The notes under the pieces: generated by a model
The model's database searches: none
Told to the model about the DNA's origin: nothing
Seen by the model: only the letters and a program-made list of their open reading frames with translations
Translations under genes and position numbers: made by a program
Part shown: one piece after another, positions 3,831 to 44,359 of the stretch
Position numbering within the stretch: position 1 is the first letter of the stretch
Layout of the letters: each line of letters begins with the position of its first letter
Origin: Branchiostoma belcheri
Lineage: Eukaryota
DNA length: 64,000 bases
Assembly: GCF_001625305.1 (NCBI RefSeq)
Contig: NW_017802379.1
Span: 4,341,479 to 4,405,478 of the forward strand
Direction of reading: 5' to 3'

Positions 3831-21581
<17,751 letters not shown>

Positions 21582-22313
21582 AACTGGTGGACAAAATGGC
21601 ACAGCAGCTGAATGATGCACTACAGCAAGAGGTTCTTGAGGTAAAGAGGGGATGGATGGTCAACCTGTTGAAGAAATCCACGTTTTCATGGAGGTGTCAT
21701 GCACCGTCCAACCGGCCTGACAATCCTTGTGATGCAGAGACTGAGCACCTGGTGTAGCACCTGATGAGTGATCAGAGTTAACTTCAGGAATTCGCAAAGG
21801 TGAGGACAATCACGTATATACCTGCAGTGCGGGTATAAGACGCCAGGAGCCACCCAAAGACGGTCATCTATTTGGAATTTGAGCAGATCTCGACTTCAAA
21901 CGAGCGATCATTATGACAGGAAGTGGACATTAAAGAACATTTACTTGGCACATGATTACATCTGCTCCTTTGACCTTCGGGCGACATATGTCGTTGCCAC
22001 TCATTGTAGTAAAGTCATGTCTGTTCTTTGTCGACGACTACCTCGACGAAAAGTTTGTTCCAGAACGTGTCACCAAAATAAGTTGCACGGTATCATGTTT
22101 CAAGTAGTTTAGTTATTCTGGAATGAAGTTGCGTGAGTGCGAACAGTGGAAATATGTATTACACAGTAATGACAACTGTCCATTCCTACAAAAACGTATT
22201 GAACCGGCCTTTTATGACGTTGTATGAGTCATTCTGTGACGGAGGAAAACGTTTCTGACAGTGACAATGAAAACAAAATGAAAACACGCTAGTGCTCTAA
22301 TAGGATCTAAAAC

Positions 22314-22480
22314 ATGGGTTCCTTCCCGTCAAAGAGTAAAAAGAAAGAAGAGAAGCAAGGAAAGAATCAATCCCCGAAAAGTACGCCGGAAGAAGTTCGG
22401 CGCAAGGTACCCAGACGGACGGCCAGGAGAGCGTCGGCCGTGCCGGGGCTGGACACGATTCGGGACGATCCTGATGAAGA
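22314..22480 (+). CDS. Candidate alternative first exon of the same small gene (MGSFPSKSKKKEEK...)
   Basis: ATG at ~22314. It encodes MGSFPSKSKKKEEKQGKNQSPKSTPEEVRRKVPRRTARRASAVPGLDTIRDDPDEE, with a myristoylation consensus, a polybasic cluster and an RRAS site. It ends at GATGAAGA|GTAGGT, a strong donor at phase 2, which matches the phase needed by the shared exon at 25433. It could alternatively be a stand-alone 56-aa ORF (stop at 22482). Confidence 0.25.
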
Positions 22481-25078
22481 GTAGGTTTTTCACGTTCAGG
22501 CTGTTCCATGCATGTGGCCTATATGTGTGGCATTTGCATTTAGTTAGTGTTCCTAGTTCTACACCCATCCTCAGCGACACCAAGGGCCTTGGCTTGCATA
22601 AAAAAGCCCATGAACCCGTCTGGATCTTCTAACTTTTCAGCCTGTACATCGTAATTAGTGGGAGCCTGACAAAGGCTCCCAGGTCCCTTCCTCTCTGTTG
22701 GCTAATGCTATAGAACTAGCTGTAGCTAGGGCTGTTGTGTTTAAAAGCGTCCTCTAAATTCACAGCAGTCTTGTGCTTTGTTGCCCCACTTTTGAGCCAT
22801 AGTGTTGCGGGTTCGAACCCCATCCTAGCGTTAGTGTTCTGAGAACCGATTTGCAAGGTAAGGGTTAGAGATCCTTGGAGGGGCTAAGCCAGAGATACCT
22901 TGTTAAACACATCAAGAACTAACCTCATATCAAAATGCACGTTAGCATCGCACCAGACTAAGCAGAGTATAACCAAGCATACCGACATTGTCTCACAGAG
23001 ACGCCGGTAGCTGGGTCTTCGGCGGCGGCTCATCGGAGAGGGCGAACATTAACATCCCTGACGTCACGGAGGGGGCGGACGTCTCCGACTGGAGCAGATC
23101 ATCAGATCATAGCATCACACCGGACATTCCTACATCTAGATCATCAGAACAGGTCTAGGGAGGGAACCAGACAAAACTGTACCGTTCCAGTATGACAGAA
23201 CTGGATAGGAACTGTTAGTTTGTGTGCACCTATCTTATTTTCTTGCCCATGGTACACAGAATCCAAAACTGATGCGATTTATGGTTTAGACTATGTAAAG
23301 ATCCGTCAGCAAATATCAGAATGCTTTTTTAAACGGTACTATAATGCCACTGTCTATCTTCAATATTGGTCAGCTGAGCTGAGAAGGATACAACTTTTTA
23401 CATTTTTCGGTACGCGGTGGGAACATTTGTCTCGAGCCATTGTACACGTTGTGCCCCGTGCAATTATTAGACATCAATGAATCAGTGTATGTGAATATGA
23501 TGTAGTAGGAAGAGTTAAAAAGGAAACCTGAAAACGAACTGATTGAGTGTTAAACACCTTTCTTTTGTCGGCATCTTGTCGGCACATGGACGTCTTGAAG
23601 ACCAGTAAATGTCAGTCATCTACGCACATCCCAGTCTTGTGTTTTCGGGGGCCAAAGTCAGTTACTAGTATTTAGTTAGCGCATGTGTCTATGAACCAGT
23701 TGAAGTGACTTATTGGTGTATGGGGAATGAATTTCCGTACCTTCATATTCAACCGTCATTGTATGCAACAAAACATAACTTCCAATTGGAGCCTCACATA
23801 TGTCATTACCGGGCAGTTTACTCACCAATTCACGAAGCAGCGTTTGGCAGACATCGTCACAGAGGAGGCAGTAATGTGTAGGAATCAAACTTGATTCCAT
23901 CCTTCACTAGCCTCCCATTTCTTGCCCAGGTGGGGCACTGTCATGACTGGTCTCCGTCCACAATGGCATCAGTGTTCTAGCGTGCCATTGAACATAAAGA
24001 GACCCCTAATGGTTAGGGCAGGATTACATTCTTTCTAGTAGATAAAATCAATGAATGTACAATACATGTCCTTCGTTACTTCATATCAAGCACTTCAGAT
24101 ATACTAGTAAATGCGATGTCCTTGCATCAGGGGCCATTGCTACAGAAATACCACCGTCGAAAATCCATTTCAATTTGTCAATACAGATGGGCCTAATCTA
24201 AATGACAATATTGTACACATTGTACGGTTTGCACCTAGATTGTAGTCATGTCACCACTAATAGCTAGGTCAAATCGGTATCAGTTGAACTTGAATCTCAC
24301 GTTTTATCGTATACCAGTCCCACTGGCATTTCAACAGTGCGAGCCAGATGTAAAGTTAGTTTCAAGATAAAACCAATCGAGTCAGTGATCATATCTAAGC
24401 TCTAATGTAACTGTAGTCCTAACAATAACTAATACATGTGCAACGGACTAGCGAGGAAGACAAATTCAGTTCTTACCCAGACAACTTTGTCGATCATGGA
24501 GCTGGAAATGATCTACCCAACTTTTGTGTGGAGCATAAAATGGCACACTTACTTCTGTTCTCACTGAGAAAGTCCAAACGTCATAGAAGTGAAAATGGTA
24601 ACGTCATAAGATAAGATGACCACTAAATGCGGTGACCCTCCATTGACCGCAGATGACCCTCGTGTCCTCAACTGACCCCAAGAGCAACTGCCCTGCATGT
24701 TATCGTAGAACGCCACATCTAAATATAACGTTACGTTATGTTGTAGTAAACAAGTCCTTATTCTGTAAAATAACACTATGACAGTCACTATAATTTTTGC
24801 TGTAATGGGTTTTGCCAAGCACAACCATTCAGACATATCTCCAATGTGGTTGAATCTTCAACCATCTGAGATCACGAAGACTTTCAGCTTGAAATTTATT
24901 TTCGATTTCTACCAAACATACATCAACGTCACAAAGAAATATGACGAAACAGCGGAGCTATTCGCTTGACAGTGTAGCCTTGGTCAGAGCGCAACGCCCC
25001 CGAAGAAAAAGGGCGCCTCTCTTGAAGATTTAACATGGGCAGACTTGTCAACAAGCATCTTGCTGACACGTGATCAAA

Positions 25079-25658
25079 ATGGGATGTACGATCTCAAAAA
25101 AAGCCTCTTCTATCCACCTGCTAAAACGGGCGGAAACAATTTCATACGGCCCAACGATCACCGTGGAAGACGACGACGATTTCACTATCTCTCCCCAAGA
25201 AGAGCTACAGAGGATGAACAGGGCCCGAAGACGGTCTCGCAGACGGTCTTCCATCGCTCCAGGGGTGGCCGCAATCGCCGAAGAACAAGAAGAAGGGTGC
25301 GAAAAAGAACTCCTTTCTTGTTGTTTCCTACGCTTTTTATAATAAGCAATTCTGACAATTCTTGGCTTCATTTTAGTTTTTCTTCTCTAAAATGGAAACA
25401 AACTACCGGTACAATTTTTATTCCCCATGCAGATCAGCAAGTGACCATGCTTTTGGCGGGAAGGGCCTTGTGGCTGGCCCGTTCTCTTCACCACGAGGCT
25501 CCATCTCACTAGACCCCGGCACAGGACCGCTAGTAGGAGCTGTCACTCCGGACTCGCTGAGACCGGACTTGCTGAGACCGGACTTGCTGAGACCGAAAGG
25601 GCCTACCGAACTCCCAAGGCTCTCAGAAGACTCACTGGACGAGGACGAGAGCTGGTGA
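25079..25658 (+). CDS. Hypothetical small N-myristoylated acidic/disordered protein, two exons (25079-25296 and 25433-25658)
   Basis: Exon 1 begins MGCTISKKASS, which has an N-myristoylation consensus (G2, S6), Cys3 and a polybasic tail. The donor GG|GTGCGA at 25296 is phase 2, and the acceptor ccccatgcag|ATCAGC at 25432/25433 is phase-compatible. Exon 2 ends ...SEDSLDEDESW then TGA. The joined product is ~148 aa. I recognise no family. Confidence 0.35.
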
Positions 25659-26696
25659 AATGTTCAGGCCGTGGTTGGACAATGTTATTGCCACTGACTG
25701 TGATCATTTCTCATGGCAGAATTTATAGAGTATTATTATGACGTCACGATGAACATGTGATCAACAACTTCTGAGAACATATATCATAAAATTCATTTCA
25801 TAAAGTTGCTTAACTTCTGTGAAGTTTTTATTTTCACAATATACAAAAACAGAATTGTAATCAAATGATGAACCCGCACGAAAAGGATCTTAGATGACTG
25901 GCAAAAGTGAAGAAAATCAGACCCACAAAAAGTACAAAATGGTGTCACTACAGTGCAAAAGGTAACACTGCGGAGCAATATTGCACAAAGAAGCAAGACA
26001 ATGTAGCTTCTGAAACTATATCTGTAGCAGTACAGCAGTGTTCAATACATCTCTATACATGTCCTATAATTGTAATCTCAAGGTTTGCAATATAGAATCT
26101 ACTTCTTCATTTGTGGAGTTTTCATCATGTACAGGAAAACGTTACAACAGTACCAAGCCAAAGTCAATTTGTTTTTGCATCAAACCTACAATCTTCAGTT
26201 GCTAATTCTATACAACCACAACCACCAAATCATGATAGAATATCAACAACACAATATAAGCCAGAATGGTGCATATCTTTTGTTTTTCATATCTTTTTGT
26301 CCCACCACTTTCCACCATAGAAACAAGATCACAGTATCTTAAAAAAAATACACCCTTTACCCCATCTTCTTTGGTAACTCATTTGCCCAGCATTTGCATT
26401 GTATATGTTGATTACAAGTAGTGTAAGTAGCACTTTAAATCTACAGTTATATTCTCTCCCCTACCCCATTAGCAGGGATTGCAGCTATACTGGCAAGGAA
26501 GGTCCCTTTCTGTTTTTAACACTTGAAATAGAACAATTTATAGTAATTCTTTGTGAAAGTAGAATCTACTTCCATTCAAGGAGCTTACAGGGAAAAGGTC
26601 TCCCTTGGTCCATTCTATGCAGTTGTCATTACTCTCCAAGGAGCACTACAGGTCTTATAAAAGATGGACTATTCGAAGATGGTTGAATTGAGCTTC

Positions 26697-29600
26697 CTAG
26701 TCTTCTGAGGAACCAGAGTCGCGGCGCACACGTGCAGGTGGGCCACTGGCTGCCCCACCCATGGCCCCGATCAGACCCCCGGCAGTGTTGAAGAGGTTGA
26801 TGGGAGAAGAGCCATCTGTGATCAGGGTAGAGGTCAGACCCAGACCCTTCAGTAGTTTGACCTGTGGATGGGGAGATAACATCATTAGTGACATTGTAAA
26901 TAATCATAGCATGTGTTAAAGGCATCAGGTGGTTTTTGTGAAACAAAACAGGACAACACATAGAGAAATATAAGAAAAACCCTGACCTGTAGCTCGGGCC
27001 CAGCCAGGGCGATAGACTGGATAGTCTGAGCACCAATGGCATCCACCTGGTTCTTGAACTTCTGTGTCTCGATGTCGGCCATTTCCCTTAGCTTGGCCAC
27101 TTCCATGTCATTCTGCTCCCGCAAGTACTTTAGCTCAGCCTCACGTGCTGTGGTCAGGCGCTCAAGCTCAGATTCCTGTAGAATTAAGATGAGGTCAAGT
27201 TAAGTATATTCCCATGGCTGATATTTATTTTTGGACACAGGCATTTAAAAATCTATAGTCTTCTGAAAATGAGCAAATTCTAAATGACCATTGAAAAATA
27301 ATTTTTCATTCCGGCATGAGATGTCATACAGAAAATCAAGTTTATGAAGCCTAATACAACAAGTTTGGGGCCTTGCCCAGTACGATATATAGATATAGAA
27401 GGGAACCTACAGCTTCAATCTTGGAGGCCTGTGCCTTGAGCTTGGCCTGCTCCACCGCCGCCTCTCCTTCGATCCTGGCAGCCTCGGCGCGAGACTGGGC
27501 CTCTGCTTTGGCCTGGCCTGTACTTTCCACTGCAGCACTGAAGAAGGAAGGAACCATAATCAAATTCAGTGAAGTTAACAGTCAGGCATTCGTGGAAAGA
27601 CGAAATAAAATCTTACGAGTTAGTAGCACTTACTGTAGATGTTATATGAATGCAAGTTTGCACTTAGTGGATTCTTTGATGACCATAAATTGTATCATAA
27701 ATGATAGTAAAAAGTGCAATATTTCATTCCAATTGGAGAAAAAGTCTCCTGTCTCTTGTTGTGTAAGGAGATTTCTAACTCTACAGTAATAACTGTAATT
27801 TCAATAATCAACACTCAATCAAAAGAGAGAATAGTCCAAACCTCTTGGCCTGCAGTTCCAGCAGGTCTCGGCGTGAATTCTCTGCTTCCGCCTCATCCTG
27901 GATCTTCTGACGCTCCAGCCGACCTTTGGCTTCCTGTTCCACGCGCTCGGCCTCGTGCCTGGCCGCAGCCTCCTGGGAGTTGGTGGTGATCTCGATGGCG
28001 AGGGTGACGGACTTCTGCAGCGAGTCTCGCGTGCGCTGGTCCACCGGCTCCACGGACTGGATATCTACACTGGTAATCACCAGGTTGTTCTGGGGGAACT
28101 GGAAACTGTAACAAACAGAGGGAAATGGTTAGTGATTATCACCAGGATATTTAAGGGGAACCTGAAACTGCAACACATCTTTATACAACAACTATCCAAA
28201 ATAACCTCATAACTGTTGAAATGTGGAAAAGGTAAGGGAGGGTACTCACACATCGCGAACCTTGTTGTTCTCATCCAGACCAAATACCGATGCCCTGATG
28301 ATACGAGCAGAGTTCTGGAATGACAAAATAATTTATTGAGATTACAATCAAGATTGTGATGAAAATTGCAATGGGAAGATCAGAAGAGTGAATAACATGC
28401 CCCTGAAGGCTAGGACCTGCTTTACCATGTGTCTAAACTTAAAACACTGCTAATTAATACCTGCCTACTGCAAAGTCAAATGTATGCAACCATACAAATC
28501 TACAGTGCATCTCACCTTGTGGAAATCATCAAACTGAACACCGGCAACAGCCCCACGGACACGGGAGGCCACAGCCTTGCAGGCGTCGCCAACAAAGTCG
28601 GGAACACTGAAAATCTTCTTGCCATCCTTCTCCTTGTCCTTGACATCAAAGTGCCTGGTGGTCACAAAGATGAATGAAGGAAAAAATGATAGGTAATGAT
28701 ACAGAAATGTCAAGCAAACATAACTTTTGTAAATCCAAACAAAATATTACTGTTGATGGTAGAGAAGGCCCAAACTGCTCCTATCAAACAACAGGGTTGG
28801 GTGTGAGTTGGAAAGTTCCATTCTACAGACAGGAGAGACAGGACATGAACCACCTACCAGTTGTAGCTCATCTGCAGCTGCAGACGGGCATGGTCGGCCG
28901 TTTCTATGGTGATGATATCGGTGCAGAAGTCGGGCCCGAGGAGCAGGCACAGGGACTTGATGACGTTGGGTCGCTTGGGCTTCCCGCCGGACAGACTGAG
29001 CTGGGTGAACTGTTCATCAGGTCCCAGCAGCACCAGTTCAGGCCCAAACACAACCCTGAAATGTACGGTTAATATAGGTCATTGTTTGTAACCTAGAGAT
29101 TTAGCAATTCAACTTAAGGAATCAAGGAATATCAAACATCTGTGAACTGTTCCAACTGCAAAAGGAAAATTCTGCTTGACTGAATCAGAAATTCATATTT
29201 GCCATTTTGACATATTAGATATAATGCTTACATGTCTTTACTTGTAAGTTTGTACCAATATCCACTTGTGTTGAGACTTGTTTATTTGGTCTTGCTTCTT
29301 AATTCCACACTTTTCGAAAATAAAATCACGTAACCATCATACACACCTGGCTTTCTTCTCCTTGTAGTCGTAGATCTGGACAGCAGCGTTGTGAGGCACG
29401 CGGAAGGTCACGACCTTGGTTTTGTCCCGCGGCTGGTCCGAGCGGGGACGGGGCCCACGGTCACTTCGGTCCGCGAGTGGATCCTTAACGGACAAAATTC
29501 AGAACAGTTCAGGAATAGATTTCAGAGTATAGCTCTGTAACAGTGTAAGGAACCTTTTGAGTTTTATTCTTTGATTACAGAATGCCTAAGTCTACGTCTA

Positions 29601-41712: not shown

Positions 41713-44359
41713 ATGTCGTTCTTCGTGGATTCCTGCATTATGTTTACTACCCAGGTATGTATGTGTGTATGTTTAATACATCACTGGTGTAGACCCATAA
41801 CACACGTAACACAAGTTAATGTTAAGTTACCTGTTCATTCATGAAAATGTTGATCACAGCAAGGAGTCTTCATCCCGGTTCACACCAAATAAAGCTCATA
41901 AGAGTAACATTACAAAATATTTCATTGCAGTATGTTCAACCACATCGCTCCCATGATCTTATGATTTCAAGTTAACAACTTTTTGTCTTTAGTGCTTGGC
42001 TGAAATGTTATAGTATGTTACAAACAGAACCATGTTGATTTCTTCACCACAGGCTTTCTTCTTTGGGTTTGGCTGGTTGTTCTTCATGAGGCAACTCTTC
42101 AAGGACTATGAAATCCACCACAGGTTAGACAAACACATCTCATTAGATTTAGAGTCAGTGTAACCATGGTAACTGGTTCTCTTCTTGCTGCATGATGTGT
42201 TATGTGTAATGTTACTGATCATATAATAAACTGACCAAGGCCCTATACTGTGCTAAAGGAACAGGAAGATAAAGAGCAAATTCCTGATCTCCAAACATGT
42301 TTAATAAATGAATAGGGCTGTGTCATCATATAGGGTGAGAGGTGCCAGTGATGTACAGAACAACCTTTGAACTTTGACTCATGTTCTTGTTCCAGGGTGG
42401 TGCAGCTGACCTTTGCTGTGACCTTTGCCCTATCCTGCACCATGTTTGAACTCATCATTTTTGAGATTGTGGGATTTCTGAACTCCAGCAGCAGGTGTGT
42501 ATTAAAAAATCTCAAAATGGGTATGGTACAGGCTAAGTCATTAAACCATTGCTAGGTTGTTGGCATCCGTATCTGAAGACGATGGAATCCGTGCCATGGA
42601 TCAGTAGGTAAATGTATTTCTTCCAGTCTATTACCTTTTAATCATGCATCATTGCATGTAGGTTTATACATTTGGTGCACTAAACTGTTGCATTCAATCG
42701 TTCCTTTTGTTTCAGATATTTCCACTGGAAGTTGGACCTGTATGCAATGCTGTTTTCTCTCATCTTCCTGCTGCCATTTTACATTGCCTACTTCATAGTC
42801 AGCAACCTAAGGTGAGAGAAGTACTGACCAATGGAGAAATTGTAGCCAAACGGCTACAATGGTGTGCTAAAAGTTAAGTTTAAACAAAACTGCAAATATC
42901 CAATCAATGTTCGTGTATCAAACTTGAAAAAATTGTCTATTGCCACTAATCATATGACTTCTCTTCCCATCCTATCTGCCAGGTTTGTCCAGTCCTTTCA
43001 GCGCAGACGTCTGATTGTGTGGCTCACCGTGGGGGTTTGGCTCACCTTTATGTACTTCTTCTGGAAACTTGGAGACCCCTTTCCTATCCTCAGTGCCAAG
43101 CATGGCATCTTCTCAATTGGTCAGTTTAGTTTGCTTATCATAAATTATCAATAGTGTTGCAATCAATAACTACTGAACTGTATCAGTCCTGTAATACCTG
43201 TCCAATTTTCGGATATTTGTTTAACGTAAATTAAGGAGGATTGTGATGATAGTGTATTTGGTATGTGGGTAGGTCTTGGGAAGATGTCTAAACTACTGTT
43301 GTCCTTATGGATGATAGGTCCTTTACTTTTGCCATTGGATCAAAGCCCAGATATGTATATGTATTGGATAATATTGTTTAAAGAATCACACCCTACATCC
43401 CTATTGTCCCTCCAGAACAAGGCATCAGCCGTGTGGGAGTGATCGGTGTGACCCTCATGGCCCTGCTGTCAGGGTTTGGTGCCGTCAACTGTCCCTACAC
43501 CTACATGGAGTACTTCCTCCGCCACGTCACCGACACCGACATCCAGTCCCACGAGCGCCGTCTCCTCCAGAACATGGAGATCATCCTCACCAAGAAGAAA
43601 CGTATCGCGCTGGCGAAGCGGGAGACGAGACAGGCGGGTCCCGGGACGCAGCGGCAGGGAATCTGGGGGATGCTGAAGAACGTGACGACGAGTTTGCCCG
43701 CGGGAGAGAACGTGCGACAGCTGCAGCAGGACGTGGAGGCGCTGGAGGAGCTCAGTCGGCAGCTGTTCCTGGAGGTCGTCGACCTGCACGAACAACGGGA
43801 GCGCATCGCGTACTCCAAAACCCTGAAGGGGAAGTACTTCAACATCATGGGGTACTTCTTCTCTCTGTACTGCATGTGGAAAATCTTCATCTCCACGGTG
43901 AACATCGTGTTTGATCGCGTGGGGAAGACGGACCCGATCACCCGCGGGATCGAGATCGTGGTGGTCTACCTGGGGTTCCAGTTTGATGTGAAGTTCTGGT
44001 CACAGCACATCTCCTTCCTGCTGGTGGGCATCCTCATCGTCACGTCCATCCGCGGACTTCTCATCACCATGACCAAGTTCTTCTACGCCATCGCGAGCAG
44101 CAAGTCTTCCAACATCATCGTGCTCCTGTTTGCAGAGATTATGGGCATGTACTTCATCTCCTCCGTCCTCCTGATGAGGATGAACATGCCTGAGGAGTAC
44201 AGACTCATCATCACAGAGGTGTTAGGAGACCTGCAGTTTAACTTCTACCACCGATGGTTCGATGTGATCTTCCTGGTCAGTGCCCTGTCCAGTATAGGAT
44301 TCCTGTACCTGGCACACAAACAGGCCCCAGAGAAACACATGATGCAGAGCATGTATTGA
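41713..44359 (+). CDS. GPR89: Golgi pH regulator / GPR89 family protein, 6 exons, ~455 aa
   Basis: Approximate exons: 41713-41754 (MSFFVDSCIMFTTQ), 42052-42122 (FFFGFGWLFFMRQLFKDYEIHH), 42387-42494 (VVQLTFAVTFALSCTMFELIIFEIVGFLNSSS), 42716-42811 (YFHWKLDLYAMLFSLIFLLPFYIAYFIVSNL), 42983-43119 (LIVWLTVGVWLTFMYFFWKLGDPFPILSAKHGIFSI), 43416-44359 (GVIGVTLMALLSGFGAVNCPYTYMEYFLRHVTDTDI...LAHKQAPEKHMMQSMY, stop). The protein is about 75% identical to human GPR89A where aligned. Confidence 0.9.

Follow-up and report, generated by a model that had tools for sequence, protein, structure and literature searches.

Two tandemly duplicated genes for small, probably lipid-anchored proteins in the amphioxus Branchiostoma belcheri

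Gene content of the locus

The window analyzed here, a stretch of 64,000 nucleotides of DNA from the amphioxus Branchiostoma belcheri, contains two small two-exon genes on the plus strand, gene A (22314-22480 joined to 22999-23158, 108 aa, LOC109467578) and gene B (25079-25296 joined to 25433-25658, 147 aa, LOC109466394). The pair is flanked by a minus-strand LDLa/trypsin gene on one side and a minus-strand major vault protein (MVP) gene on the other. Both proteins are already present in public annotation as uncharacterized, and the locus is real and fairly ordinary. As judged from their sequences, both genes probably encode small, disordered, lipid-anchored proteins. An original prediction, made from the letters of the DNA, had listed a number of sequence features here, all of which are present where it placed them. 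The parts of the locus are the following.

22211..22313, plus strand: conserved 5' flank of gene A, 5'UTR or promoter-proximal region (blastn, sequence)
22314..22480, plus strand: gene A exon 1, CDS of 167 nt, phase 2 (sequence, RefSeq identity, orthologues)
22481..22998, plus strand: gene A intron, 518 nt (blastn, sequence)
22999..23158, plus strand: gene A exon 2, overlooked in the original prediction (sequence, RefSeq identity, orthologues)
23159..23640, plus strand: putative gene A 3'UTR (conservation; transcript end inferred)
24543..24778, no strand assigned: conserved non-coding block between genes A and B (blastn)
24986..25078, plus strand: conserved 5' flank of gene B, 5'UTR or promoter-proximal region (blastn, sequence)
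25079..25296, plus strand: gene B exon 1, CDS of 218 nt, phase 2 (sequence, RefSeq identity, orthologues)
25297..25432, plus strand: gene B intron, 136 nt (sequence comparison)
25433..25658, plus strand: gene B exon 2 (sequence, RefSeq identity)
25548..25595, plus strand: in-frame tandem repeat, 15 bp, unit CCGGACTTGCTGAGA, 3.2 copies (TRF)

Gene A has the start context AAAACATGG, with an in-frame TAA two codons 5' of the ATG, and blastn aligns the block 22211-22486 with B. floridae and B. lanceolatum at 74-76% identity. Exon 1, whose ATG at 22314 opens MGSFPSKSKKKEEK, encodes MGSFPSKSKKKEEKQGKNQSPKSTPEEVRRKVPRRTARRASAVPGLDTIRDDPDE(E) and ends in the donor GA/GTAGGT; its product is identical to residues 1-55 of XP_019621159.1 (P0010), and its orthologous exons lie at 4105-4283 of the B. 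floridae locus (L001) and 6278-6456 of the B. lanceolatum locus (L002), with dN/dS of 0.16-0.58. Exon 2 begins at the acceptor TTGTCTCACAG/A, with the same phase-2 junction, and encodes (E)DAGSWVFGGGSSERANINIPDVTEGADVSDWSRSSDHSITPDIPTSRSSEQV followed by the stop TAG at 23156-23158. Its product reproduces the C-terminal half of XP_019621159.1 exactly, and its orthologous exons (L001 4980-5100 in B. floridae and L002 7012-7156 in B. lanceolatum, dN/dS 0.31-0.38) are related by in-frame indels only. The intervening intron is unalignable between species, with no blastn block from 22497 to 22968. It includes a tRNA-like GCGGGTTCGAACCCC stretch at 22807-22830, for which there was neither a tRNA call nor an Rfam match. 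Downstream of the stop, conservation extends to about 23605-23640 and then falls, and AGTAAA is found near this end at 23604 in B. belcheri, with AATAAA in B. floridae. Region 23159..23640 is thus the probable 3'UTR of gene A, its end being placed by the drop in conservation and the variant hexamer.

Gene B has the start context TCAAAATGG, with an in-frame TGA five codons 5' of the ATG, and the block 24986/25020-25301 is 82% identical by blastn in both B. floridae and B. lanceolatum. Exon 1, whose ATG at 25079 opens MGCTISKK, encodes MGCTISKKASSIHLLKRAETIS...EELQRMNRARRRSRRRSSIAPGVAAIAEEQEE(G) and ends in the donor GG/GTGCGA; its product is identical to XP_019619670.1 (P0007), with orthologs P0002 and P0003 and dN/dS of 0.14-0.33. 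The intron measures 136 nt in B. belcheri, 671 nt in B. floridae and 279 nt in B. lanceolatum. Exon 2, entered through the acceptor ...CCCCATGCAG/A at 25432/25433, encodes (G)SASDHAFGGKGLVAGPFSSPRGSISLDPGTGPLVGAVTPDSLRPDLLRPDLLRPKGPTELPRLSEDSLDEDESW and closes with the stop TGA at 25656-25658 (dN/dS 0.36-0.44). It is acidic (net -5), with abundant Ser, Pro and Gly, and its 3.2-copy, 15-bp repeat at 25548-25595 encodes DSLRPDLLRPDLLRP, i.e. (D)[SL]LRP repeats, in agreement with the acidic, Ser/Pro-rich tail with LRPDL repeats described in the original prediction. Three copies are present in P0001 and P0007, four in P0008, and one in B. floridae and B. lanceolatum; the expansion is specific to B. 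belcheri and its copy number varies between haplotypes.

The non-coding block between the genes (24543..24778) aligns by blastn at 82% over 173 nt with B. lanceolatum L002 and at 72% over 235 nt with B. floridae L001, and Rfam and tRNA scans across the interval gave no match. In B. lanceolatum, its counterpart is located just past the annotated 5' end of the minus-strand LDLa/trypsin model.

Tandem duplication and the origin of the two first exons

The original prediction described a single gene that uses either 22314-22480 or 25079-25296 as its first exon and splices each of them to 25433-25658, producing two isoforms with a common body. The coordinates, ATGs, phase-2 donors, 25433 acceptor and stop on which it drew are all present in the sequence; both donors are in frame with the 25433 acceptor, and the joined ORF of 130 aa is open. 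However, a conserved 3' exon with a stop of its own, 22999-23158, belongs to the exon at 22314 and is reached through a nearer strong acceptor at 22999 in the same phase. This 3' exon shares homology with the beginning of exon 25433 (EDAGSWVFGG compared with GSASDHAFGG); the frame compatibility is therefore a legacy of the duplication and says nothing for a shared exon. The fit of both first exons to the 25433 acceptor, correct as far as it goes, is a trivial consequence of the identical intron phase of paralogs, and the frame compatibility of paralogous exons in general gives no ground for inferring that an exon is shared.

Public annotation agrees with two genes. The gene A join is exactly RefSeq XP_019621159.1 (108 aa) and the gene B join exactly XP_019619670.1 (147 aa). 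Two genes with one protein each are called in every public annotation, comprising three independent ones (RefSeq B. belcheri, GenBank Bbelb_146140/146150, and the RefSeq B. floridae x B. belcheri hybrid), whose 108-aa and 147-aa products are the same as the joins or differ from them by a handful of residues and a single repeat unit. By contrast, the exact 130-aa chimeric product of 22314-22480 and 25433-25658 was not found among about 15 billion public proteins, in which the 108-aa and 147-aa products are present. Gene B also has its own conserved upstream block. On the other side, no canonical AATAAA or ATTAAA occurs on the plus strand from the gene A stop to the gene B ATG, so read-through between the two units, and a rare transcript joining the first exon of gene A to the second exon of gene B, is conceivable. 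The canonical hexamer is equally missing 3' of gene B, so that its absence cannot discriminate between the models, and independent 3'-end formation of gene A rests on the variant hexamer and the drop in conservation. Taken together, a single gene with a shared 3' exon is very unlikely.

The B. floridae (L001) and B. lanceolatum (L002) loci are collinear with that of B. belcheri: genes A and B, each with its own exon 2, keep their order and orientation. Gene A could be reconstructed in both species; its donor there is an identical AGAGTAGGT, its acceptor is of the TTTGTCT(C)ACAG type, and the phase is unchanged. The two proteins are 34% identical, and alignment of the A profile with the B profile by hhalign gave E=1.5e-5 over A21-68 / B36-83, crossing the exon junction and placing the split codons opposite each other (A residue 56 and B residue 73, both introns being phase 2). 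Because the profile alignment spans the junction and the intron position is homologous, genes A and B are, on this comparison, paralogs with an intron at a homologous residue. As read from the alignments, duplication of the complete two-exon unit preceded the divergence of the three sampled Branchiostoma species, and both copies have since been kept under purifying selection.

The possibility that one or both units are non-functional, i.e. chance ORFs or decaying duplicates caught by ab initio gene finders, gains some support from the lack of homologs beyond Branchiostoma, of a domain and of a fold, and from the missing annotation of gene A in both B. floridae and B. lanceolatum. Against this, the three species share intact ORFs, start codons and splice sites, all indels in both genes are in frame, exons align by blastn whereas introns do not, and similarity between A and B has been retained from before the species split. 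At dS of 0.3-0.8, dN/dS is 0.25-0.45 for gene A and 0.23-0.36 for gene B, with each exon within 0.14-0.58, values which come from three closely related Branchiostoma species only and have few substitutions behind them. Non-functional units are very unlikely, and the original prediction was right to regard the exons as real coding exons of small proteins: their ORFs are intact and conserved in the two related species, and their joins are identical to RefSeq proteins.

The two-gene layout, the conserved separate copies of exon 2 and the paralogy of A and B together show that the locus is a tandem duplication and not a case of alternative first exons. This corrects the record: what looked like one protein body with a choice of lipidated N-termini is the product of a tandem gene duplication, and the locus does not challenge current understanding. 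Two separate, tandemly duplicated, two-exon coding genes on the plus strand, combined with the acylated-phosphoprotein working model set out below, form the best explanation of the locus, with a probability of about 0.85.

N-terminal signals and protein body

The N-termini MGSFPSK (A) and MGCTISK (B) fit a PROSITE PS00008-type myristoylation signal, with Gly2, a small uncharged residue at position 3, Ser/Thr6, Lys7 and no Pro7, and are invariant within each orthologue set as MGS[FV]PSK and MGCTISK, respectively. The MG starts, polybasic at 22314 and with Cys3 at 25079, which the original prediction had singled out, are thus N-myristoylation-type N-termini conserved in three species. An in-frame stop lies 2-5 codons 5' of both ATGs with no intervening AG, so that in these frames, if they are used, nothing but the initiator Met can precede Gly2. 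By itself, the myristoylation pattern is weak evidence at the sequence level: a PROSITE-style pattern is found at 20 of the 2659 ATGs in the window, and the strict form MGxxx[ST]K at 3 of 2659, two of which are the gene A and gene B starts.

In the working model, A and B form a pair of disordered, lipid-anchored phosphoproteins at the inner leaflet of the membrane, and their motifs suggest that both would be co-translationally N-myristoylated on Gly2. The second signal would be a polybasic stretch in A (residues 1-42, net +10), as in c-Src, and a palmitoylatable Cys3 in B, as in G-alpha-i and Lck/Fyn. These different second signals would send the paralogs to different membrane domains.

Common to A and B is a conserved basic cluster, RR-[TS]-x-RR-[AS]-S-hydrophobic-x-PG, after which come an Ile that never varies, a run of acidic residues and the motif FGG. 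Because its Ser is preceded by Arg at P-2, P-3 and P-6, the cluster resembles an optimal basophilic phosphorylation site (PKA/PKG/AGC-kinase type); motifs of this kind are short and are frequent in Arg-rich disordered regions. Phosphorylation of the cluster may alter an interaction with the membrane or a partner, either as a MARCKS-type electrostatic switch or with the protein serving as a kinase substrate or decoy. The duplicated genes would thus have diverged in the second signal (polybasic versus palmitoyl-Cys) and kept a common basophilic phosphosite core. If the proteins are kinase-regulated membrane switches, they offer a small, tractable system for anchor subfunctionalization.

The family proteins are hydrophilic and poor in aromatic residues, with segregated basic and acidic segments, and are predicted to be intrinsically disordered. 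The AF2 model of gene B has a mean pLDDT of 54.5 and a pTM of 0.15, its sole helix (39-56) being of low confidence. Composition and this absence of a confident fold are consistent with the acidic, disordered bodies proposed in the original prediction.

Several candidate motifs were near-misses by eye and were set aside. The PP2A-B56 motif LxxIxE is approached by L..I.D in A and V..I.E in B, and 14-3-3 mode I by a site whose Pro is at +3 instead of +2; SxIP, RVxF and acidic dileucine motifs, and the reading of ...DEDESW as an Arp2/3 'acidic-Trp' tail, were dropped likewise.

Relatives and resemblance to known systems

So far as is detectable, this family of small disordered proteins is confined to amphioxus. 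No relatives outside Branchiostoma were found in 5.8 billion proteins (word-indexed search, first with a profile of two sequences and then with one of six at E<=10), and HMMER, run exhaustively over 1.84 billion representatives, gave no credible relatives beyond the genus. Two bacterial repeat proteins were rejected as homologs, their multi-stretch matches through Gly/Pro/Ser-rich repeats being spurious. A PDB sequence search returned only noise (E~0.5, SnoL), and among six family members searched against Pfam at E<=10, the only match was to PF16643 (cNMPbd_u2) in one protein, at E=0.059 and with 14 bits where the cut-off is 27. The original prediction's statement that no family could be assigned holds for both genes, which are without a Pfam or PDB match and have relatives detected only in Branchiostoma. 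Literature searches with the locus identifiers, protein identifiers or PF16643 found no papers.

Among known proteins, MARCKS and MARCKSL1 resemble A and B in being small to mid-size, disordered and acidic overall, with an N-terminal MGxxxSK signal, a two-coding-exon gene, and a separate, highly basic, Ser-containing cluster targeted by basophilic kinases (predicted in A and B). However, there is no sequence similarity and no PF02063 match at E<=10 in the six proteins. The A/B cluster is Arg-rich (RRxxRRxS), lacks the Phe/Lys-rich effector domain, is encoded by exon 1 and not by exon 2, and presents a PKA/AGC-like site (RRxS-hydrophobic) rather than a PKC site, in a family restricted to cephalochordates. 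BASP1 (NAP-22/CAP-23) and GAP43 are likewise disordered, acidic proteins of the membrane periphery, whose N-terminal segment is basic and which carry a lipid anchor such as is presumed for A and B. The N-terminus of BASP1, MGGKLSKKKKGY, is similar in logic to the MGS..SKSKKKEEK of gene A. Yet the A/B family has no match to PF05466, PF06614 or PF10580 at E<=10, and GAP43 carries palmitoylated Cys3/Cys4 without myristate and an IQ motif, whereas A and B have neither an IQ motif nor a CC pair. The original prediction had also likened its arrangement to that of GAP43 and BASP1, but alternative acylated first exons are not known for either protein, and the arrangement therefore does not define them.

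Myristate plus a polybasic stretch and myristate plus Cys3 are the two classical 'two-signal' solutions to membrane attachment. The putative signals of gene A correspond to the first, as in the Src-family SH4 region (cf. c-Src MGSNKSKPKD), and those of gene B to the second, as in Lck/Fyn and G-alpha-i (cf. MGCTLS). In contrast to the Src-family and G-alpha-i/o proteins, A and B (108 and 147 aa) have no SH3, SH2, kinase or GTPase domain, and the SH4-type likeness is one of anchor logic over 7-20 residues only, convergent rather than homologous.

A more specific function is suggested by resemblance to PKI and to the inhibitor site of the PKA RII subunit: the proteins may be dedicated membrane-tethered PKA/PKG regulators, with RR-T/S-x-RR-x-S-hydrophobic docking in the catalytic cleft. 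In the family alignment, P-6, P-3 and P-2 are Arg, P-4 is small, P-5 is Thr or Ser and P+1 is hydrophobic, positions matched by PKI(14-22) RTGRRNAI and the RII RRxSV site. The basic motif is followed by an acidic run, as in RII linkers, the proteins are small and disordered, of the heat-stable type, and the sub-threshold PF16643 match is to a disordered region of cNMP-binding proteins. Nevertheless, this match concerns one of six proteins, and PF16643 was discarded as a PKA RII linker family, since a PRKAR2B sequence gave no PF16643 match. Neither PKI (PF02827) nor RII gave a Pfam match at E<=10, and the likeness is limited to a few basic residues. The P0 residue is Ser in A and B, making them substrate-like as in RII, whereas it is Ala in PKI; A and B have no PKI-type N-terminal helix, nuclear export signal or conserved aromatic residue at P-11, the Phe10 / amphipathic-helix determinant of PKI is not conserved, and a lipid anchor such as that predicted for A and B would be a further difference from PKI. 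Dedicated kinase regulators of this type are therefore improbable, and the working model of a lipid-anchored phosphoprotein pair is preferred. A related reading makes the pair a novelty of cephalochordates that, tethered to the membrane, would act as docking sites or decoys for AGC kinases, cyclic-nucleotide-dependent or other, and so as a lipid-anchored functional analogue of the PKI/RII inhibitor site with an independent origin; it is speculative and decidedly improbable. If it were true, one paralog would sit on acidic-lipid membrane through its polybasic stretch and the other in palmitoylation-dependent microdomains, with PKA/PKG activity buffered or reported in spatially separate places.

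Gene structure and conservation

The locus, in sequence of eukaryotic origin that protein searches place in Branchiostoma belcheri (Chinese amphioxus), holds two tandem genes, here called gene A and gene B, that are lineage-restricted, uncharacterised and already present in public annotation. The original prediction described a single gene in which alternative first exons at 22314 and 25079 join one common 3' exon. All of the elements listed there (both first exons, their donors and the 25433 acceptor) are present, but the account was incomplete, as the exon at 22999-23158 had been overlooked.

Coding exons of genes A and B and the repeat in gene B (a slash marks the splice boundary)
22314-22480, plus strand: gene A exon 1; ATG at 22314 opens MGSFPSKSKKKEEK; 167 nt, phase 2; donor GA/GTAGGT
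22999-23158, plus strand: gene A exon 2; acceptor TTGTCTCACAG/A at 22998/22999; 160 nt; TAG stop at 23156-23158
25079-25296, plus strand: gene B exon 1; ATG at 25079 opens MGCTISKK; 218 nt, phase 2; donor GG/GTGCGA
25433-25658, plus strand: gene B exon 2; acceptor TTATTCCCCATGCAG/A before 25433; open frame to TGA at 25656-25658
25548-25595, within gene B exon 2: 15-bp in-frame tandem repeat ('LRPDL repeats'), 3.2 copies

The strong acceptor of gene A exon 2 lies about 520 nt 3' of the exon 1 donor, in the same phase. The joined exons encode proteins of 108 aa (gene A) and 147 aa (gene B), identical at every residue to the B. belcheri RefSeq entries XP_019621159.1 (LOC109467578) and XP_019619670.1 (LOC109466394), respectively. 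Near-identical allelic forms are annotated as neighbouring genes elsewhere too: Bbelb_146140 and Bbelb_146150 in a second B. belcheri assembly, and LOC144915679 and LOC144915678 in the genome of a B. floridae x B. belcheri hybrid. The start contexts of both ATGs are strong, with A at -3 and G at +4. An in-frame stop lies 2-5 codons 5' of each, and no AG intervenes, so translation of these frames would necessarily place Gly2 directly after the initiator Met.

Orthologous loci in B. floridae (L001) and B. lanceolatum (L002) were reached via their gene B orthologs (P0002 and P0003). The three loci are collinear by nucleotide alignment, and each has gene B flanked on one side by an LDLa/trypsin gene and on the other by the major vault protein (MVP) gene, both on the minus strand. 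Gene A is unannotated in the other two species; tblastn found both of its exons 5' of gene B, and the DNA there retains an intact ATG, an identical donor (AGA/GTAGGT), an acceptor of the TTTGTCT(C)ACAG type and an unchanged phase, with a stop soon after. Across the three loci, identity is 65-82% in exons and directly adjoining sequence, while the intron of neither gene can be aligned. At dS 0.3-0.65, pairwise Nei-Gojobori comparison of the three species put dN/dS in the range 0.25-0.45 (gene A) and 0.23-0.36 (gene B); gene A exon 2 alone gave 0.31-0.38, and every indel in it is in frame. By these ratios and the alignment of exons but not introns, genes A and B are real, conserved coding units, with both predicted frames kept in the related species (dN/dS 0.23-0.45). 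The LRPDL repeats, though present as originally noted, are not a family feature: they are a young, microsatellite-like, copy-number-variable expansion specific to B. belcheri, whose haplotypes carry 3 or 4 copies against 1 in the other two species.

Tandem duplication and the proposed exon sharing

Proteins A and B are 34% identical. Profiles built from the three orthologs of each align by hhalign (E=1.5e-5 over A21-68 / B36-83) across the exon junction (DDPDEE/DAGSWVFGG vs EEQEEG/SASDHAFGG), with A residue 56 paired to B residue 73, the two codons that the introns split. Because the alignment crosses the junction in this way, it argues that the entire two-exon unit was duplicated in tandem. 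The phase-2 donors of both first exons do fit the 25433 acceptor, as predicted, but this follows from the intron phase common to the paralogs and lends exon sharing no support. Splicing of both 22314-22480 and 25079-25296 to 25433-25658 would accord with the lack of a canonical AATAAA or ATTAAA on the plus strand 3' of either gene. It is nevertheless very unlikely, as gene A exon 1 has its own same-phase, stop-containing exon, the two genes are separately annotated, and the 130-aa chimera of the gene A first exon and gene B last exon is absent from ~15 billion public proteins, as is the reciprocal chimera. The 3' flank of gene A is conserved to ~23.6 kb and then decays, at a point reading AGTAAA in B. 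belcheri and AATAAA in B. floridae, and ~60-90 nt directly 5' of the gene B ATG are also conserved; these conserved flanks suggest a separate transcript end for gene A and start for gene B. A minor read-through isoform from gene A into gene B may exist.

Predicted acylation and relation to known proteins

A PROSITE-style myristoylation pattern is matched by 20 of the 2659 ATGs in the window and is therefore weak evidence by itself; the strict form MGxxx[ST]K is found at only three, two of them the gene A and gene B starts. The motifs MGS[FV]PSK (gene A) and MGCTISK (gene B) have the form of textbook N-myristoyltransferase substrates, and myristoylation of the predicted Gly2 sites is probable. 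The second membrane signal is polybasic in c-Src, and a palmitoylated Cys3 in G-alpha-i/o, Lck and Fyn; gene A has a polybasic run of the c-Src type after its motif, and gene B has the Cys3 counterpart, whose palmitoylation is slightly favoured. The core common to all six aligned sequences reads (S/T)PEE(V/L)xR … RR-[TS]-x-RR-[AS]-S-hydrophobic-x-PG-x-x-x-I-(acidic)4-5 … A-x-x-x-x-FG. Its RR-x-x-RR-x-S-hydrophobic segment, with Arg at P-2, P-3 and P-6 (RRASV in B. floridae gene A), is optimal as a PKA/PKG-type site for basophilic AGC kinases, and PKA-type phosphorylation of the basic cluster has an even chance.

Both proteins have the composition of disordered polyampholytes with segregated charge. 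Protein A carries net +10 in residues 1-42 and net -11 in residues 43-108; in protein B a mildly basic N-terminus is followed by an acidic block at 21-44 (-7), an Arg cluster at 45-60 (+8) and an acidic tail (-9). For protein B, AlphaFold2 gave a mean pLDDT of 54.5 and pTM of 0.15, with a single low-confidence helix (residues 39-56). What is conserved, both in each paralog and from one to the other, suggests lipid-anchored phosphoproteins. In the proposed model each protein would be disordered and held at the membrane by myristate, its basic cluster would on phosphorylation alter its interaction with acidic lipids or a partner in a MARCKS-like switch, and different membrane environments would receive the two paralogs. 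The small acylated disordered protein of the original prediction is retained in this form; its alternative N-termini on a shared 3' exon are not.

Neither profiles of 2 and 6 sequences, run up to E=10 in a word-indexed search of 5.8 billion proteins, nor an exhaustive HMMER scan of 1.84 billion representatives found relatives outside Branchiostoma; two bacterial matches in the HMMER scan were spurious and repeat-driven. No Pfam family or PDB sequence was matched, in line with the earlier inability to assign a family; the sole sub-threshold Pfam match (PF16643, E=0.059, one protein) established no tie to PKA R subunits. In its proposed mode of action the pair resembles MARCKS, BASP1 and SH4-anchor proteins. 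It belongs to none of these families, since profile matches are absent (MARCKS and BASP1 included) and hallmark features are lacking: the effector domain of MARCKS, the IQ motif and Cys-Cys pair of GAP43, and the kinase domains of Src. A membrane-tethered PKA/PKG decoy, akin to the PKI/RII inhibitor site, is improbable; the pseudosubstrate Ala and Phe10 of PKI are missing.

Surrounding sequence

Exons of the LDL-receptor-class-A/trypsin-type protease gene occupy 20001-21935 (minus strand), with a probable signal-peptide exon near 21.5 kb that would place this gene head-to-head with gene A, ~0.7 kb apart; the annotated B. lanceolatum model reaches past gene A, which would put gene A in its first intron. 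Downstream, MVP 3' exons (~26370-28000 and beyond, minus strand) lie tail-to-tail with gene B. The sole AATAAA near the gene B 3' end, at 25827 on the minus strand, probably belongs to MVP, so the two 3' ends may lie within a few hundred bases. Between genes A and B lies a conserved non-coding block (24543-24778), 82% identical to B. lanceolatum over 173 nt. It carries two ACGTCA half-sites and no conserved ORF, and may act as a regulatory element, shared or bidirectional, or serve the minus-strand protease gene as an alternative promoter.

The gene A intron contains a tRNA T-arm-like stretch, GCGGGTTCGAACCCC (22807-22830), and the B. lanceolatum intron a comparable one (L002 ~6780-6810). ARAGORN and Rfam assigned no tRNA or RNA family, and the window holds no second copy; it may be a tRNA-derived SINE remnant. 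The CRE-type palindromic octamer TGACGTCA occurs 8 times in the window against 0.68 expected from shuffles (176, 898, 20398, 20515, 20757, 23059, 25739 and 36970). Three copies (20398-20764) lie in or near LDLa-coding exons, that at 20515 reading CDV on the minus strand; one is within gene A exon 2 and another 80 nt past the gene B stop.

Elsewhere, short-tandem-repeat ORFs at 16456-16788 (HTYI repeats) and 17079-17522 (CSAKEL / RRGCVQ repeats), both plus strand, are almost certainly non-coding minisatellites from a mechanical ORF list. An intact 1107-aa ORF at 6415-9738 (plus strand), coinciding with a GC-rich stretch at 6-10 kb, encodes a non-LTR (LINE-type) retrotransposon with apurinic-type endonuclease and reverse transcriptase (Exo_endo_phos + RVT_1). 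An uninterrupted 308-aa ORF at 43433-44359 (plus strand) matches Golgi pH regulator / GPR89 (GPHR_N + ABA_GPCR), and is either a single coding exon of unusual length or a retrocopy.
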